NCBI GenBank assembly: GCA_964477525.1
Contig: CAYZHY010000014.1
Coordinates: forward strand, 9,501-41,500
Reading direction: 5' to 3'
DNA: 32,000 nt
From: an uncultured Geitlerinema sp.
GTDB taxonomy: Bacteria; Cyanobacteriota; Cyanobacteriia; Cyanobacteriales; PCC-9228
Both the position numbers and the translations under genes were made by a program. Below are positions 4,976-11,824 of the stretch, piece after piece. Positions within the stretch are counted from its first letter, which is position 1; each line of letters opens with the position of its first letter. The notes under the pieces are model-generated. The model was given only the letters and a program-made list of their open reading frames with translations. It had not been told where the DNA came from and searched no databases.

Positions 4976-6808
4976 ATGCGTAGCTTCTTCAAATATACGT
5001 TTGCCACTCTGGTAGGCAGTTTTGTAGGATTATTTCTATTTTTAGGCGTAGGTTTTGGCTCTCTTATATGGCTGATTGTTTCCACAGCCAGCAAAACGGG
5101 AGAACCCACCGTTGAAGATAAATCGGTTTTGGTTTTCGATCTATCGGCAAAAATTCGCGATACCCGACCGCAATTGAGCAGCCGCCAGGTGGTAGAAGGT
5201 GCTTTGGGTGAATCCGAAGATGAAAGCGTTCTTACATTGCGCAATGTTTTGCAAACGCTGGAAGCGGCGGCGGAAGATGACAAAATCGTGGGGTTGTATT
5301 TGCAGGGAAGCACTTCCGAAAATACGACCGGTTATGCCATTTTGCAGGAAGTACGCCAGGCTTTGGACGAATTCAGGGAATCGGGCAAACCCATCTACGC
5401 CTACGACCTGAATTGGAGCGAAAAAGAATATTATTTAGCTTCCGCTGCCAATAAATTGTTTGTCAATCCCACTGGTATGGTAGCGATTAACGGCTTTAGT
5501 TCCCGTACGACTTTTTACAAAGAGGCGCTGGATAAATACGGCATTGGCATTCAGGTAATTCGTGCTGGGGAATACAAATCGGCGGTAGAACCGTACCAAC
5601 GTACGGAATTGAGCGAGGCGAACCGCCAGCAAACCCAACAACTGCTCAACGATATTTGGCGGGAATTTCGGATAACAGCCAGCCAAAATCGCGAATTCGA
5701 CGCGCAAGGTTTGCAACAAGTAGCCAGCGAGTGGGGGTTGATCCAACCACAAACAGCGACATCAAAAAATTTGGTAGATGAGGTGGCTTATTTTGACGAA
5801 GTGACGGCGCAATTGCAAGAGCTGACCCAGCAAAGCAGCGAAGATACCACTTCGTTCCGGCAAGTGGGACTGGGAAAATACAAAAGCAGCCTCAACGATG
5901 GTTTGGTGGATGGTAGTGAGGAAGAAACCAACAACCAAGTAGCGGTGGTTTACGCAGAAGGAGCAATTGTTCCTGGTAGCGGTACTTTGCAGCAGGTGGG
6001 TAGCACTCGATTTAGCAAACAGTTACGTAAATTGCGCGAGGATGATAAGGTAAAAGCCATTGTCATGCGGGTTAACAGCCCTGGGGGCAGCGCTACAGCT
6101 TCGGAGGTAATTCAACGGGAAGTGAAACTTACCCAACAAAAGAAACCCATTGTGATTTCTATGGGCAATTATGCGGCTTCTGGAGGATATCTCATTTCTA
6201 CCTATGGGAGCAAGATTTATGCGGAACCCAATACGATTACGGGGTCGATTGGGGTGTATGGCTTGCTTCCCAACGTTCAGGAGTTGGGGAACGATTTGGG
6301 AATTACCTGGGATGGCGTGAAAACCAATCCATTTGCGGATTTAAATACGATTAGCCGTCCCAAAACAGAAGCAGAGATGCAAAAATTGCAGCAGATGGTG
6401 CAACAATCCTACGATCGCTTTTTGGCAGATGTTGCCCAAGGTCGGGGGTTGGAACGGTCAAAGGTAGCGGATTTGGCGCAAGGTCGCGTTTGGTCTGGGG
6501 TTCAGGCACAAAAGGAGGGATTGGTTGACGAATTGGGTGGTTTGGAAGATGCGATCGCGGAAGCCGCGTCAATGGCAGAATTGGACCAATGGCAGGTGCA
6601 GGAATATCCCAAACGGAGCAGTTTTGAAGAACGTTTGTTGAAACAATTCCTACAAAGTCGTGTCGGTGGGGATAACCCAGGTTCGCTGGTGGAAAGCCAG
6701 TTGCAGCAGGAGTGGCAGCGCCTCAAACAGCAAATGGAATTGCTGGCGACCCTCAACGACCCACAGCATATCTACGCTCTGATGCCTTATAAAATAGAAA
6801 TTGATTGA
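4976..6808 (+). CDS. sppA: signal peptide peptidase SppA, 67K type
   Basis: 610 aa with an N-terminal TM helix and two tandem S49/ClpP-fold halves. The second half carries VNSPGGSATASE and ISMGNYAASGGY. Confidence 0.88.
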   Translation: MRSFFKYTFATLVGSFVGLFLFLGVGFGSLIWLIVSTASKTGEPTVEDKSVLVFDLSAKIRDTRPQLSSRQVVEGALGESEDESVLTLRNVLQTLEAAAEDDKIVGLYLQGSTSENTTGYAILQEVRQALDEFRESGKPIYAYDLNWSEKEYYLASAANKLFVNPTGMVAINGFSSRTTFYKEALDKYGIGIQVIRAGEYKSAVEPYQRTELSEANRQQTQQLLNDIWREFRITASQNREFDAQGLQQVASEWGLIQPQTATSKNLVDEVAYFDEVTAQLQELTQQSSEDTTSFRQVGLGKYKSSLNDGLVDGSEEETNNQVAVVYAEGAIVPGSGTLQQVGSTRFSKQLRKLREDDKVKAIVMRVNSPGGSATASEVIQREVKLTQQKKPIVISMGNYAASGGYLISTYGSKIYAEPNTITGSIGVYGLLPNVQELGNDLGITWDGVKTNPFADLNTISRPKTEAEMQKLQQMVQQSYDRFLADVAQGRGLERSKVADLAQGRVWSGVQAQKEGLVDELGGLEDAIAEAASMAELDQWQVQEYPKRSSFEERLLKQFLQSRVGGDNPGSLVESQLQQEWQRLKQQMELLATLNDPQHIYALMPYKIEID

Positions 6809-6854
6809 TAGAAAGCTAGCAAGCGATCGCTTTAGCTGTTTCCAATAAAGTTTT

Positions 6855-6884
6855 GTCGGGTGGGTATTGCCCACTCGACTTTTA
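6855..6884 (+). terminator. rho-independent terminator downstream of sppA (GGGTGGG hairpin family)
   Basis: GTCGGGTGGG-tattg-CCCACTCGAC, a 10-bp stem with one G-U pair, followed by TTTTAT. Confidence 0.6.
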
Positions 6885-6927
6885 TAAATTGACTTTTTCC
6901 AAGAAATTGCAGATTTGGATTAATTTC

Positions 6928-7221
6928 TCAATAGAGATGCTCTGGTTGCTGGTAATCTAAATAGGCATTTGCCGGTTCAAAATCGCTACAGTTAATCGCT
7001 TCTTCGGTAAAAGCATCCTTAGGGCGTACGGTGCATTTGAGTCGATAGTCTCCCGTACAAAAAGCACAGCGATCGCAAGGGATTTGATGTACGCGCTGTA
7101 TCTGGGCAATGCCTTTTTTGAGATTGCGCCAGAAAGCAGATAGCAGCAAACCTACAAACAACCAAGCAAACAAACTACGAAAAAGGACAAATAGATCGAA
7201 GCTCGTGTCAGCCATTACCAT
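6928..7221 (-). CDS. small membrane-anchored Cys-rich protein (hypothetical)
   Basis: Start trimmed to the ATG at 7221, which is preceded by GGGAG; an alternative ATG lies at 7215. One hydrophobic helix (LFVLFRSLFAWLFVGLLLSAFW), then CDRCAFCTGDYRLKCTVRP...INCSDF. Same strand as the IsiA-like genes and 124 nt downstream of them. Confidence 0.55.
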   Translation of the reverse strand: MVMADTSFDLFVLFRSLFAWLFVGLLLSAFWRNLKKGIAQIQRVHQIPCDRCAFCTGDYRLKCTVRPKDAFTEEAINCSDFEPANAYLDYQQPEHLY

Positions 7222-7270
7222 AAATCTCCCAATATCAAACACTGTCAAACCAGACTCGCCAAATGGTTCG

Positions 7271-7299
7271 GTAGGGGTACTTACGCGAAGCACCCCTAC
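7271..7299. repeat. hairpin repeat, GTAGGGG..CCCCTA family
   Basis: gtaggggtacttacgcgaagcacccctac: 11 bp paired with one mismatch and a 5-nt loop. Lies between the third IsiA-like gene and the small Cys-rich gene. Confidence 0.55.
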
Positions 7300-7345
7300 T
7301 TTCAAGAGGCTCTATGGCAACCTTCCCAAAGCTAGTTAGCGAATC

Positions 7346-8422
7346 CTACCGAGAAGTGCCCACGGCTTCTTGGGAAGGAGAAGAAGCCACCACTTCCGAG
7401 GAGCGACCTTCCCAAAGTTGGGCAATCTTGCTGAAATCAACCCCAGCAGCGCGCAAAGCATGCCAGAGGTGACCTTGCAGGAAGAAAAAGGCAAGGAAAA
7501 AGTGAGCGTTAGCCAGCCAAGCACGAGGTGTATACGTTCCTGGTTCCAACTGTGCCGTATCTGCAAAATACGGGACAAAACTAACCTGCAATTCCAACGT
7601 GGGACCGTAAAATTCTGTGGGATAAGCCAGGGTATTGAAAGCGCAGAAAGCAGTCGCAACGAATCCTGCCAAGGCAATACCGCCCAACGAGTAAGACAAA
7701 ATGGCTTCTCCCGAGAAATTCAGCAAGCGTTTTGCCCAAGCAAAAGGTTCCTGCACGATGTGCCAAATTCCGCCTGCCAACAGCAAAATGGCAACGTAGA
7801 TATGACCGCCGACCAAATCCTCTAGATTATCAATCCAGAGAAAATCGGTTTGATAGCTGTAAATCACCCAAGGATTGAGGGTAGGATTGGTCACCTGACG
7901 CACCTCACCCAAATTGGGGTCGTAGAGACCACCACCAGCAGTAGCGTGGAAAACAAAGAGCAATGCACCCAATCCCAGAAAAATCAAATGGATACCGAGA
8001 ATCGACCCCAGTTTTTTCGGGTCGTTCCACTCAAAATGGAATTTGGCAGCGCCACCGGAAGCCTGTTTCAAATCGCTGGGAACGCGAACTTGGTGGAAGA
8101 AAGCACCCAATCCCAACACGCCAGAAGAAATCAGATGGACTACGCCTACCACATAAAAGGGATAGGTATCGATCGCTTCTGGACCTTCTGTCATTCCCAA
8201 GCCTAAAGCCGCCAAATGGGGCAACAGAATCAACCCCTGTTCGTACATGGGGGCTGCTGGGTTATACTGGGAGAGTTCGAAGAGGGTAAACGCACCTGCC
8301 CAAAACACAATCAGGGCAGCGTGGGCAATGTGGGCGGTGAGAAACGTACCGGATAAATTAGCCAGCCGGGCGTTTCCCGCCCACCATCCATATCGGACTT
8401 GAGAGTTTCCGTAAGTTTGCAT
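7346..8422 (-). CDS. isiA: IsiA/CP43'-family chlorophyll-binding antenna protein (third gene of cluster)
   Basis: 358 aa. N-terminus [20 protein letters not shown]...[16 protein letters not shown] and six-helix CP43-like blocks without the large lumenal loop. GAGGAGG SD lies 5 nt upstream of the ATG. Confidence 0.88.
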
Positions 8423-8442
8423 AAATGCCTCCTCAATGCAAG

Positions 8443-9843
8443 TTAGTTAATCGTGCCGCGAAAGATAGCGTCGATGGTTTCAAAGTTTTGCAAGAGAAAG
8501 TAAGCGACCCAAGCGCCGCCAACGCCACCAATCAGGAAGCTAGCGCGAAATTGGTTCCAATCTTGTTGGTTTTGCAGCCAGTAGAAGATGGTGCCTTCCC
8601 GGCAAGCAGCGAGAACGACGGTTACGATGGCGATAATGGCTACAGCCGCTAGCAAAGCCGTTTGGCGCGCCCAACTGGGTTCGGAAAGCGGACTGAGGGT
8701 GACAAACGGACCCACCAGGAAATAACCGTGGGCCATACCAATTTCCAGTCCGCGCCACATAGGCGATAAACCGCGACGGTAAACGGGCAAATTGGCCAAA
8801 AATATCAGCGTTGCTTCGCCGGAACCAGTAGCATTGGAAGCAAAGACACCGCGACGCATATCAAAGCCACCAGTACGCGATCGCACTCTGACCGCATGCC
8901 AGATGTGCCCCACCAACAGCAGCGCTGCCAAAACCACATGGGTAGTTGCCAGCCAAGTACGGGGCGTGACCGCACCATTGGCGGTTTCCGACCAACCCAA
9001 AGGTCCGTAAAACTCTACTGGATAAGCCAAATCATTGGTGGTGACAAAATAAGCCGCCAAAAATCCAGCATAGGCCAAAGCCCCCAGGCTGTAGGACAAA
9101 TAAGCTTCGCCGGACCAATACAGCACATCTCGCGCCCACTTGTAAGGCTTCGAGACCACGTGCCAAATGCCACCGACGACACACAAAAGTCCGACCCAGA
9201 TATGGCCGCCAACCAGATCTTCCAAGTTATCCACGGCAGCCATCCCTTCTGGACCTTGCACTCCTACCAGATAGCCGAAAATGCGGATGGGATTTAACGT
9301 CGGGTCGCTGACAGCGCGAACGGACTGGATATTGGCATCGTACAAACCACCAGCGTAGGTTGCCTTAAACGCCAGCAGCAACGCTCCCAGTCCCAGTAAA
9401 ATCAAGTGAATGCCCAAAATGGAGGTCATTTTGTCTTGGTCTTGCCAGTCGTAACCGAAAAAGCCAGGAATCGACTTCTCTTGCGGCAAAACCTCCGGAC
9501 CTAACAGAGCGTGGTAAACACCACCAGCTGCCAAAACGGCGGAACTCACCAAATGTAGGACCCCCACAACCAAATAGGGATAGGTATCCACAATTTGTCC
9601 GCCATCAGCAACGCCCCATCCCAACGTTGCCAAATGCGGCAGCAGAATCAGTCCTTGTTCGTATAAAGGTTCGCCGGGATGGTAACGAGAAAGTTCGAAG
9701 AGGGTAAACGCGCCTGCCCAGAAAACGATTAAGGCTGCTTGCGCCACGTGCGCTCCCAGCAATCTTCCGGAAAGGTTCGTCAAACGCGCATTGCCTGCCC
9801 ACCAACCGTAGGCTCGTTCTGGAACCGTGGTTGTTGCCGTCAT
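8443..9843 (-). CDS. CP43'/IsiA-family chlorophyll-binding protein with C-terminal PsaL-like domain
   Basis: Start trimmed to [21 protein letters not shown] (ATG 9843-9841), which overlaps the upstream gene's TGA as ATGA. The last ~132 aa (nt 8446-8841) match PsaL blocks: [30 protein letters not shown] and [25 protein letters not shown]. Confidence 0.88.
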
Positions 9844-10829
9844 AGCTTCGTGCCTCCTAATGCCTGCATGCGAGCGCGAATGGCGTGCCAAATATGGCCG
9901 GCTAAGAAAACAGCCGCCAAAGCTATATGGGCTGTCGCCAGCCAAGTGCGTGCGGTTACCGTACCGGATGCCTCTTGCAAGCCGACGGGGCCGTAAAAGA
10001 CTTCTGGATAGGCAAAGTCGTTGACAGTAACGAAATAAGCTGCCAAAACACCCATATAAGCCAAAGCGCCCAAACTATAGGAAAGATACGCTTCCCCGGA
10101 CCACACGAACAGACGTTTGGCCCAACCAAAGGGTTTGCTGGCGATATGCCATAAGCCGCCAACAACGCAGAGAAAGCCGATCCAAGCGTGACCGCCAACG
10201 AGGTCTTCTAGGTTGTGGACCGCTGCCATACCGGCGGTGCCTTGACTGCCCACCAGATAGCCGAAAATCCGAGCTGGGTTGAAGGTGGGTTGGGTGACCA
10301 CCCGTACTGCTTCTGCATTGGGGTCGTACAAACCGCCCCAAAACATGGCTTTGGTGACCAGCAACCAAGCACCCAGTCCCAGCAAAACTAGGTGAATGCC
10401 CAGAATGGTGGTCATTTTGTTGGTATCCTGCCAGCTGTAGCCGAAAAAGCCAGCAAAGGTATCGTCTCGCGACAGTACCCGCGGACCGAAAACGGCGTGG
10501 TAAATGCCACCAGCGCCCAAGACGGCAGAACCAACTAGATGCAAAATGCCAATGACGAAGAAGGGATAGGTATCTGCAATTTCTCCGCCGTCAGCAACAC
10601 CCAATCCTAGGGTGGCTAGATGCGGCAGCAGAATCAATCCTTGTTCGTACATGGGTTGTGCTGGGTTGTATTGGGCGAGTTCGAAGAGGGTAAAGGAACC
10701 TGCCCAAAAGGTGATTAAACCGCTGTGTGCGACGTGCGCGCCCAACAGTTTGCCCGATAAATCTGTAAAGCGAGCGTTCCCTGCCCACCAACCGTAGTTG
10801 GATTGCGAAGGTAACGTGGTTGTACTCAT
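9840..10829 (-). CDS. CP43'/IsiA-family chlorophyll-binding protein (first gene of cluster)
   Basis: Start trimmed to [21 protein letters not shown] (ATG 10829-10827), preceded by GAGGAGG. 329 aa. Closest by eye to the N-terminal part of the fusion gene ([31 protein letters not shown]). Confidence 0.88.
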
Positions 10830-10857
10830 GGATGAGGACCTCCTCAACGGTGGCTCA

Positions 10858-10880
10858 TTGTTGAAAAAAATATTCAACAA
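10858..10880. promoter_or_regulatory. perfect palindrome TTGTTGAA-N7-TTCAACAA in the leader of the IsiA-like operon
   Basis: Read directly. 8-bp arms with a 7-nt A/T spacer, 29-51 nt upstream of the first ATG. Could be an operator or a 5'-UTR hairpin. Confidence 0.3.
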
Positions 10881-10928
10881 CCTTGGGTATCCATTCAAAC
10901 TTTATTGGCAAAAATTTGCAAGTGGTTT

Positions 10929-10946
10929 TGAGTAAAGTTTTGTAAA
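10929..10946 (-). promoter_or_regulatory. HLR1-like direct repeat (candidate RpaB-type site)
   Basis: The minus strand reads TTTACAAA-AC-TTTACTCA. The HLR1 pattern is (G/T)TTACA(T/A)(T/A)-N2-(G/T)TTACA(T/A)(T/A); the first half matches 8/8 and the second 6/8. About 100-117 nt upstream of the operon ATG. Confidence 0.3.
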
Positions 10947-10974
10947 AATTCTCCCAGAAAGCCAGGTGTTTGTG

Positions 10975-11001
10975 TAGGGGCGCAACGCGCGATCGCCCCT
11001 A
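10975..11001. repeat. hairpin repeat, GTAGGGG..CCCCTA family (contains a HIP1 site)
   Basis: taggggcg-caacgcgcgat-cgccccta: 8-bp stem. Lies between the Crp-family gene and the IsiA-like operon. Confidence 0.5.
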
Positions 11002-11117
11002 ACAGGGCAATTGAGACATTTTAGACAATCGTTGTTTTTCAGAACTGGTGTAATACCAAATCCGTCCTGCGAAGACCCGAAAAAATTTACCACATTCGAC
11101 CTGCAGTCTTCTTCGGT

Positions 11118-11168
11118 CTCCTCCCACTCCTCCCACTCCTCCCACTCCTCCCACTCCTCCCACTCCTC
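11118..11168. repeat. 9-nt tandem repeat CTCCTCCCA (minus strand TGGGAGGAG), about 5.7 copies
   Basis: Read directly: five perfect units at 11118-11162 plus a partial unit. Begins 5 nt downstream of the Crp-family stop codon (11174-11176). Confidence 0.92.
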
Positions 11169-11173
11169 GTTTT

Positions 11174-11824
11174 CTAGGATTCGGCAATGCTAGGAAAATG
11201 CTTTTTGACAATCATACGCCGCTGCTGGTCAAAACTGAGAATGCCTTGGTCTTGGAATTTGCCCATCAGGCGAGTGATGGTAACGCGGCTGGTACTGATG
11301 GCGTTGGCGAGTTCTTGGTGGGTGAGGCGAATGCCAATTCGGATGCCTTGGGGGGTGGTTTCTCCCATTTCCTGTTGCAGCCATTGCAGCAGTTGTTGCA
11401 AACGTGTTTCAACACGACGTTGCCCCGCGATCGCTAACAATGCCTCGACTTGCTGCAGTCGCCGGTTGATTTGCGGCAGGAGTTGCTGCGCTAGAGTCGG
11501 TGAAGATTCGATGTCGGTCATGGAATACCAAGTTAAATAGACATCTGACTGAGCTTTGACTTGATAGGTGGGTAAGGAGGTCAACCAAGATCCAAAACAC
11601 AAATTAGGACCAACCCAACCAACCAAGCCTTCGTTTCCATTTAAATAAAATGTACTTACCTGCACGTATCCCTCACAAACCTGCCAGATGCCGCAATGCT
11701 TGCTGGTGATGGGTTGCCCCTTGCGATAAAAAAAACAGCGGGTTTTGGTCAAGCGATCGCGAAGCGTCGGGGAACGAGAGTCGCGGTGCTGGGTTGCTTG
11801 CCATAGCGATGTGGTGGCGCTCAT
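11174..11824 (-). CDS. Crp/Fnr-family transcriptional regulator
   Basis: 216 aa. N-terminal beta-roll effector-like region and C-terminal HTH LTHQELANAISTSRVTITRLMGKFQDQGIL. GAGGAG lies 10 nt upstream of the ATG. Confidence 0.82.
   Translation of the reverse strand: MSATTSLWQATQHRDSRSPTLRDRLTKTRCFFYRKGQPITSKHCGIWQVCEGYVQVSTFYLNGNEGLVGWVGPNLCFGSWLTSLPTYQVKAQSDVYLTWYSMTDIESSPTLAQQLLPQINRRLQQVEALLAIAGQRRVETRLQQLLQWLQQEMGETTPQGIRIGIRLTHQELANAISTSRVTITRLMGKFQDQGILSFDQQRRMIVKKHFPSIAES

Follow-up and report, generated by a model that had tools for sequence, protein, structure and literature searches.

We analysed a window of 32,000 nucleotides from an uncultured Geitlerinema sp. (positions 9,501 to 41,500 of contig CAYZHY010000014.1, assembly GCA_964477525.1). 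Within it, three genes of the CP43/IsiA antenna family lie side by side in the same orientation on the minus strand. The middle one, gene 2, encodes a CP43'/IsiA-type antenna joined at its C-terminus to PsaL, a subunit of photosystem I (PSI). Its parts are as follows, with the evidence for each in brackets.

8443–9843, minus strand: IsiA2-type IsiA-PsaL fusion gene, gene 2 (single open reading frame of 466 codons plus stop)
8872–9843, minus strand: antenna domain, residues 1–324, CP43-like, with six transmembrane helices and without the large lumenal loop (PF00421, TIGR03041, helices of the AlphaFold2 model)
8791–8871, minus strand: inter-domain linker, residues 325–351, a vestige of the N-terminal stromal loop of PsaL (motif spacing, alignment gaps)
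8446–8790, minus strand: PsaL core, residues 352–466, with LPxYR, the chlorophyll-ligand motif and three transmembrane helices (PF02605, free-PsaL matches, AlphaFold2 model)
8446–8484, minus strand: short C-terminal helix, residues 454–466, with the trimer-type PsaL tail motif I-D-A-I-F-R-G (AlphaFold2 helix at 454–462, motif count)

The frame of gene 2 opens with an ATG at 9843, ends with a TAA stop at 8443–8445 and is uninterrupted; the junction of the two domains holds neither a stop codon nor a frameshift. The Pfam PSII/CP43 family (PF00421) matches the N-terminal part with an E-value of 2e-79 over model positions 2–271 and a C-terminal piece. The Pfam PsaL family (PF02605) matches residues 341–455 with an E-value of 8e-37 and 126.7 bits (cut-off 25 bits) over model positions 20–149. 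NCBIfam models give the same two-part make-up, with TIGR03041 at 393 bits on the antenna part and a PsaL match that begins at about position 30 of 160. Moreover, the last 139 residues, searched alone, retrieve the free PsaL chains of solved PSI with E-values of about 7e-33 (4l6v_L, 1jb0_L). A preliminary description of the window had placed a PsaL-like domain at the C-terminus of a CP43'-type antenna at 8446–8841, which on the minus strand encodes residues 335–466; the domain models and the free-PsaL matches bear this out, and the peptides that it quoted lie in frame. The gene does not encode a stand-alone PsaL of about 150–170 residues, as its PsaL part is the C-terminal portion of a 466-residue protein and covers only model positions 20–149.

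The AlphaFold2 model, computed for the monomer from a 79-sequence alignment, is confident in both domains, with a mean predicted local distance difference test (pLDDT) of 85 and a predicted template-modelling (TM) score of 0.74. The antenna helices span residues 25–53, 88–114, 139–163, 207–230, 245–269 and 294–324, and the PsaL helices span residues 361–382, 389–413 and 426–452. The top Foldseek match is 7y3f_1, with 59% identity over 465 columns, and the antenna domain shares its six-helix fold with canonical IsiA (TM score about 0.85 on the target). Additionally, E367 and H372 of the RGLE-x-GMAHGY motif are invariant in the 79 fusions and align with free PsaL; from PSI structures, we take these two residues to be chlorophyll ligands.

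Could the fused gene have arisen through faulty assembly or sequencing, or be a pseudogene in decay, with an isiA-like gene and a copy of psaL run together? The chance of this is negligible. The frame is continuous, and another species of the genus (G401) carries the fused gene at 95% identity, also with an overlapping paralogue upstream. The fused frame is also found at 79% identity in an independent metagenome-assembled genome (MAG; L033) from an unrelated metagenome bin, and Hormoscilla is the nearest named relative by protein, at 69%. At least 80 further genomes have the fusion, and both Pfam domains are present in all 120 matches listed in the protein search. Furthermore, the alignment of 79 fusions contains 102 invariant columns spread over both domains, each of which is modelled with confidence. 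Because the fused frame is kept in independent assemblies, an assembly artefact is excluded; a fusion produced by sequencing error, which the preliminary description had named as a finding that would overturn it, is ruled out by the congeneric genome and the at least 80 others. Collectively, these results indicate that gene 2 is a genuine fusion of a CP43'/IsiA-type antenna to PsaL.

Kinship and spread of the fused gene

The fusion class is already known and has been solved in Anabaena by cryo-electron microscopy (cryo-EM). The best match of gene 2 in the Protein Data Bank (PDB) is chain 1 of 7Y3F and 9ZJT, which is All4002 (IsiA2) of Anabaena sp. PCC 7120. The phmmer alignment of the two is collinear, from residues 4–454 of the query to 3–472 of the target, with an E-value of 1e-181. 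Similar to gene 2, All4002 has the two-domain make-up (59% identity), belongs to the same antenna clade and is set between an upstream paralogue and a canonical isiA, in a genome that also contains a free psaL. Another member of the class, IsiA4 of Leptolyngbya sp. JSC-1, comes from a non-heterocystous filamentous cyanobacterium with several isiA paralogues; it is likened here through its description in PMC9938196, which cites the Bryant laboratory for this IsiA with a PsaL-like domain. Gene 2 thus encodes an orthologue of the IsiA2-type fusion, by sequence comparison with Anabaena 7120 All4002 and, from the literature, in line with Leptolyngbya JSC-1 IsiA4. The precedents that the preliminary description named, the Anabaena 7120 gene and the JSC-1 IsiA paralogue, were the right ones, as both appear in Nagao et al. 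2023 (PMC9938196), and the alignments that it proposed, with PsaL and with a known fusion, both give matches (E about 7e-33 for PsaL; E 1e-181 for All4002).

In a tree of the antenna domains, four clades correspond to IsiA1, IsiA2, IsiA3 and IsiA4 of Anabaena. The antenna domain of gene 2 falls within the IsiA2 clade, which comprises 32 rows in one tree and 23 rows, with support 98/98, in another. It shares the six-helix fold of canonical IsiA (CP43'), which forms IsiA18 rings round PSI trimers (6NWA, 6KIF, 6K33). In contrast to canonical IsiA, of which gene 3 is a true member, the antenna of gene 2 branches in a different clade (IsiA2) and, instead of serving as a free subunit of a ring, is linked covalently to a core subunit. 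For the PsaL part, residues 343–466 align with residues of about 28–157 of free trimer-type PsaL (chain L of 4L6V from Synechocystis 6803; chain L of 1JB0 from T. elongatus), and the two share RGLE-x-GMAHGY, the three helices and a C-terminal F-R-G-x-x-N tail. However, the domain of gene 2 is not stand-alone, its N-terminal loop is truncated, its helix 2–3 loop is 6 residues shorter, and it groups with fused PsaL domains.

To place these domains, a tree was computed from 82 fused PsaL domains and 30 free PsaL proteins; the domain offers only about 130 columns, and the resolution is low. With all columns, the 30 free proteins lie on one side of a single branch with a Shimodaira–Hasegawa-like approximate likelihood ratio test (SH-aLRT) support of 97. 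With the core PsaL columns only, which guards against a bias from the junction, the split between fused and free domains has an ultrafast bootstrap (UFboot) of 87 and an SH-aLRT of 91 and occurs in 89% of bootstrap trees. This is consistent with a single ancient fusion but does not strongly prove it, as the sample of free proteins is small and the domain short. An independent, lineage-specific fusion derived from the host's own psaL is unsupported, since the fused domains all lie on one side of the split. Within the fused group, the PsaL domain of gene 2 belongs to a well-supported Oscillatoriales-type clade of 21 rows (Microcoleus, Tychonema, Oscillatoria, Hormoscilla, Lyngbya); the solved protein lies in another clade, that of Nostocales. 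The domain of gene 2 scores higher against Synechocystis PsaL than against the PsaL domain of All4002, which had hinted at an independent fusion; the higher score stems from the C-terminal tail that gene 2 retains. A small gene-conversion event limited to the tail, of about 12 residues only, is possible.

The prevalence of the fusion was assessed in 401 genomes of the phylum, 178 of which contain PsaL, taken as the mark of oxygenic cyanobacteria. A genome was counted when a single open frame matched well into the PsaL part or was of fusion length; one genome (G056) was counted on frame length alone. About 33 of the 178 PsaL-bearing genomes, including that of the host, carry the fusion, and they represent at least 12 GTDB families by a count from the listed rows. 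The fusion is therefore not rare, occurring in roughly one species in five or six, and the statement of the preliminary description that the class is rare does not hold. The same applies to its view of the class as mechanistically little explored, as two cryo-EM structures and an ultrafast-spectroscopy study (PMC13637498) exist. As a side observation, contigs with a typical cyanobacterial IsiA-PsaL cluster also occur in bins labelled Candidatus Gracilibacteria or Candidatus Saccharibacteria (L087, JAAUUT010000007.1; L109, JAHBAU020000016.1); these labels almost certainly reflect binning contamination of public MAGs.

The operon and the traits of this copy

Gene 2 is flanked by two unfused members of the family, and genes of the same type as gene 1 adjoin the fusion gene in several other loci:

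9840–10829, minus strand: gene 1, 329 residues, unfused paralogue of the fusion's antenna type, IsiA2 clade (identity, PDB match, tree)
7346–8422, minus strand: gene 3, 358 residues, canonical IsiA, IsiA3 type (PDB matches, TIGR03041, tree)
9840–10829 of the window, minus strand; loci L033, L034, L035, L037, L039 and L055; G172:C19:3086–4084: unfused IsiA2-type paralogues adjoining the fusion gene

The true ATG of gene 1 lies at 10829 with GAGGAGG just before it. Its stop overlaps the start of gene 2 in an ATGA at 9840–9843, and the spacer between genes 2 and 3 measures 20 nucleotides and carries a Shine-Dalgarno-like GAGGAGG. Gene 3, about 56% identical to the antenna domain of gene 2, finds its best PDB matches in the ring-forming IsiA chains 6k33, 6kif and 7y3f_4 (E about 1e-150), scores 461 bits with TIGR03041 and falls in the IsiA3 clade. 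Gene 1 is 69% identical to the antenna domain of gene 2, and its best PDB match is 7y3f_1 with 520 bits, versus 414 bits for IsiA1. The tree places it inside the IsiA2 clade, surrounded by fused proteins (support 98/98), which rules out that it is an IsiA1 orthologue. True IsiA1 orthologues lie one gene further upstream in the five closest loci with two unfused genes ahead of the fusion.

Unfused IsiA2-type twins of this kind number seven; all are from the Oscillatoriales group and always stand directly upstream of the fusion gene. A single origin of the twins is not rejected by the approximately unbiased (AU) test (p-AU 0.44). They are nested among the fused proteins in the best tree, which suggests that the fusion gene may have been duplicated and that one copy then lost its PsaL part. 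Based on comparison of the clusters, an arrangement of antenna gene, fusion and antenna gene is common to at least 80 loci, and the common pattern IsiA1-fusion-IsiA3-IsiA4 is found in 32. The closest relatives show IsiA1-twin-fusion-IsiA3, with or without IsiA4, while the window and L033 have only twin-fusion-IsiA3. The preliminary description had called the context informative. Its observations of two unfused flanking paralogues and ATGA coupling stand; the context is less informative than it held, because this arrangement is standard for the family. What is specific to this lineage is the identity of the upstream gene, which is not IsiA1 but an unfused copy of the antenna type found in the fusion itself.

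In the 99.9%-complete host genome, genes 1–3 are the only IsiA-family genes, next to psbB and psbC. The search of this assembly found no IsiA1 and no IsiA4, and it returned one psaK only, without a second PsaK (PsaK2). The canonical psaL for which the preliminary description suggested looking is present on contig C104, as a 173-residue open frame that matches Pfam positions 1–149 with 198 bits. The only Flavodoxin_1 matches are two open frames of 587 and 579 residues on contig C36, taken from their size to be flavodiiron proteins. An IsiA operon in a genome without isiB is unusual.

The structural differences between the protein of gene 2 and All4002 lie in the linker, the loop between PsaL helices 2 and 3, and the C-terminus. 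Linker length was measured as the number of residues between WHxxR, at the end of antenna helix VI, and LPxYR of PsaL. By this measure, gene 2 has 32 residues versus a median of 43; about 90% of the 174 fusions compared have 42–44, and equally short linkers occur among them only in the congeneric protein (32) and the Hormoscilla protein (31). Compared with All4002, the linker is 10–12 residues shorter (a 10-residue alignment gap) and is without the PsaL N-terminal loop motif. About 12–13 residues are deleted inside it, corresponding to the conserved G-x-P-x-x-G-N-L-x-T-P motif of that loop, while the extreme PsaL N-terminus is retained in the alignment as diverged linker. In agreement, the Pfam PsaL match begins at model positions 2–4 in many other fusions versus 20 in gene 2. 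The preliminary description had stated that the N-terminal ~30 residues of PsaL are absent; this is right in substance (Pfam from 20, NCBIfam from about 30), with the refinement that the extreme N-terminus survives in diverged form and an internal ~12–13 residues are deleted. Gene 2 thus lacks a complete PsaL N-terminal loop, and the trimming is common to L033, L034 and P0001. It is a lineage-specific feature and not one that defines the family.

The helix 2–3 loop of gene 2 is the shortest in the family, with 61 residues from AHGY to the helix-3 motif (median 71) and 10 residues fewer than in All4002, and it contains a clade-specific F-Y-W motif. At the C-terminus, the protein has 12 extra residues that form a trimer-type helix, whereas All4002 ends before it. 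Of the 21 Oscillatoriales-clade fusions, 18 carry the tail motif [ILV]-D-x-[ILV]-F-R-G, which is absent from the 61 other fusions. The clade keeps the motif even though its PsaL domains have diverged by at least about 1 substitution per site. In addition, the tail of gene 2 matches that of the free-PsaL clade containing the host genome's own PsaL. In PMC8908432, which cites Coruh et al. 2021, the short C-terminal helix of free PsaL is described as stabilising trimers. Judged from these alignments, the trimer-type helix is lost in Nostocales fusions and retained in gene 2.

Proposed role of the fusion in PSI

In the Anabaena complex, the C-terminal domain of IsiA2 fills the PsaL position, and PsaL is absent (Nagao et al. 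2023, PMC9938196). The antenna domain of IsiA2, near PsaA, blocks oligomerisation, resulting in a PSI monomer with an IsiA belt (PMC9938196). The PSI1-IsiA7 structure at 2.2 Å contains IsiA2, IsiA1, IsiA4, four IsiA3 and a special PsaK (Maqdisi et al. 2026, PMC13464640). Furthermore, ultrafast spectroscopy has revealed very fast energy transfer from IsiA-PsaL to PSI, in a study that calls the fusion widespread (Biswas et al. 2026, PMC13637498).

By analogy with this complex, the PsaL domain of gene 2 probably replaces PsaL in a PSI monomer, and the tethered antenna would give monomeric PSI with a partial IsiA belt. The operon would be expressed, most likely under iron limitation, given its homology with the Anabaena complex. 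The three-helix PsaL domain would then compete with free PsaL for the PsaL site of a PSI monomer and, once inserted there, place the tethered six-helix chlorophyll antenna at the PsaL/PsaA pole. There, the antenna would pass excitation energy to the core and sterically block the PsaL-mediated oligomer interface. The twin encoded by gene 1 would probably sit beside the fusion, where Anabaena has IsiA1, and the canonical IsiA of gene 3 would supply the rest of the belt. We infer iron induction, PsaL replacement, monomerisation and the role of gene 1 from Anabaena. The earlier proposal that a PsaL-tethered antenna docks in the PsaL position and sets the oligomeric state of PSI agrees with 7Y3F and 9ZJT (PMC9938196, PMC13464640) and would carry over to gene 2 by the same analogy.

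Several observations weigh against this interpretation. The linker is about 11 residues shorter than that of the solved homologue and is without the N-terminal loop motif; in the Anabaena fusion, the loop that bears this motif is 'largely unperturbed' and touches PsaA, PsaB and PsaD (PMC13464640). The docking geometry may therefore differ from that in Anabaena. The AlphaFold2 monomer model misses the experimental inter-domain orientation of 7Y3F (root-mean-square deviation, rmsd, 13.9 Å), and because of this difference it is uninformative as a gauge of whether the short linker spans both domains. A retained trimer-type helix is unexpected in a protein that solely makes monomers. Moreover, the 99.9%-complete genome yielded no stand-alone flavodoxin of the isiB type, and the operon leader showed no recognised Fur box; iron control is thus argued by analogy.

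An alternative view is that the Oscillatoriales fusion builds a PSI-antenna architecture unlike the PSI1-IsiA7 monomer of Anabaena, perhaps an oligomeric or otherwise novel supercomplex, in which the C-terminal helix still makes PsaL-PsaL-type or other lumenal contacts and the short tether repositions the antenna. The tail motif, kept in 18 of 21 fusions of the clade and absent from 61 others, speaks for this view, as does the trimer-stabilising role given to the same helix of free PsaL in PMC8908432 (citing Coruh et al. 2021). A linker 11–12 residues shorter than in nearly all other fusions and a host genome that is missing IsiA1, IsiA4 and PsaK2 of the Anabaena complex point in the same direction. 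In Anabaena, however, the antenna domain placed at the PsaL pole collides with any neighbouring monomer (PMC9938196), and gene 2 encodes the same six-helix domain; contacts inside a single monomer may also account for the tail, or it may be an ancestral feature that is weakly constrained. On balance, we consider this view unlikely. Because the genome has only three IsiA-family genes and one psaK, a complex formed here cannot, judging from gene content, have the Anabaena subunit composition. The short tether, the tail and the unfused twin, together with the absence of IsiA1, IsiA4 and PsaK2, might even yield a supercomplex architecture, and possibly an oligomeric state, unlike any solved PSI-IsiA, an outcome that we hold to be improbable but conceivable.

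The missing flavodoxin concerns instead the condition under which the operon acts. In place of an iron-stress system, the operon could encode a Pcb-like antenna that is constitutive or induced by high light or another stress, with the fusion still binding PSI. The lack of a stand-alone isiB-type flavodoxin in the genome would fit, and the neighbouring regulator is of the PtrA-like Crp family, not Fur; isiA also responds to several stresses (PMC13464640). Against this, gene 3 is closely orthologous to the canonical IsiA of iron stress (E 1e-151), iron induction is common to every characterised member of the cluster (PMC9938196), and the Crp-family regulator is not syntenic in relatives; we consider a non-iron role very unlikely. 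Replacement of PsaL by the fused domain in a PSI monomer, most likely under iron limitation, thus remains the preferred interpretation.

In PMC13637498, IsiA-PsaL is described as probably the only known case in which an external antenna is linked covalently to a core subunit of a photosystem. All structural knowledge of the fusion rests on one heterocystous species with tetrameric PSI; the filamentous lineage of gene 2 has been sampled little, and its own PsaL resembles the trimer type. Gene 2 leaves the concept of the class and its role unchanged. Its three antenna genes and one PsaK would represent a minimal parts list for the system. The comparison also suggests which parts of a fused PsaL are removable, namely the N-terminal loop motif and the helix 2–3 loop, while the C-terminal helix appears to be kept under selection. 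With its lineage-specific trimming, its retained tail and its reduced three-gene operon, this unusually compact fusion is a useful natural variant for the contributions of tether length and of the PsaL tail.

Surroundings of the operon

Two further genes on the same strand adjoin the operon:

11174–11824, minus strand: Crp/Fnr-family regulator, PtrA-like, upstream of the operon (Pfam HTH_Crp_2 and Crp)
6928–7221, minus strand: small Cys-rich, single-helix membrane protein, 124 nucleotides downstream of gene 3 (homologues in related loci)

The best NCBIfam score of the regulator is PtrA with 164 bits, below the cut-off of 300, and its NtcA score is weak. Among relatives, L039 alone has a close match next to the cluster (E 4e-68), L076 and L112 have weak ones, and a function as dedicated regulator of the cluster is therefore unsupported. 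Just past the stop codon of this gene, about 290 nucleotides upstream of the antenna operon, a perfect tandem repeat of a 9-nucleotide GGAGGAGTG-type unit occupies 11118–11168 in about 5.5 copies. The operon leader contains a perfect palindrome with 8-bp arms at 10858–10880, TTGTTGAA N7 TTCAACAA; among the 121 loci searched, it occurs only in the host genome's own pieces and has no support from conservation. A consensus promoter scan of 6800–11300 gave no sigma-70-like site, and terminator-like matches in the same region were at chance level.

The small Cys-rich protein matches no Pfam or NCBIfam family. Its homologues are present in 63 related IsiA-PsaL loci, on the strand of the cluster in all of them and downstream of the fusion in 62, and they come from Nostocales, Pleurocapsales and Oscillatoriales. 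The protein appears to be a conserved, previously overlooked companion of the IsiA-PsaL cluster.

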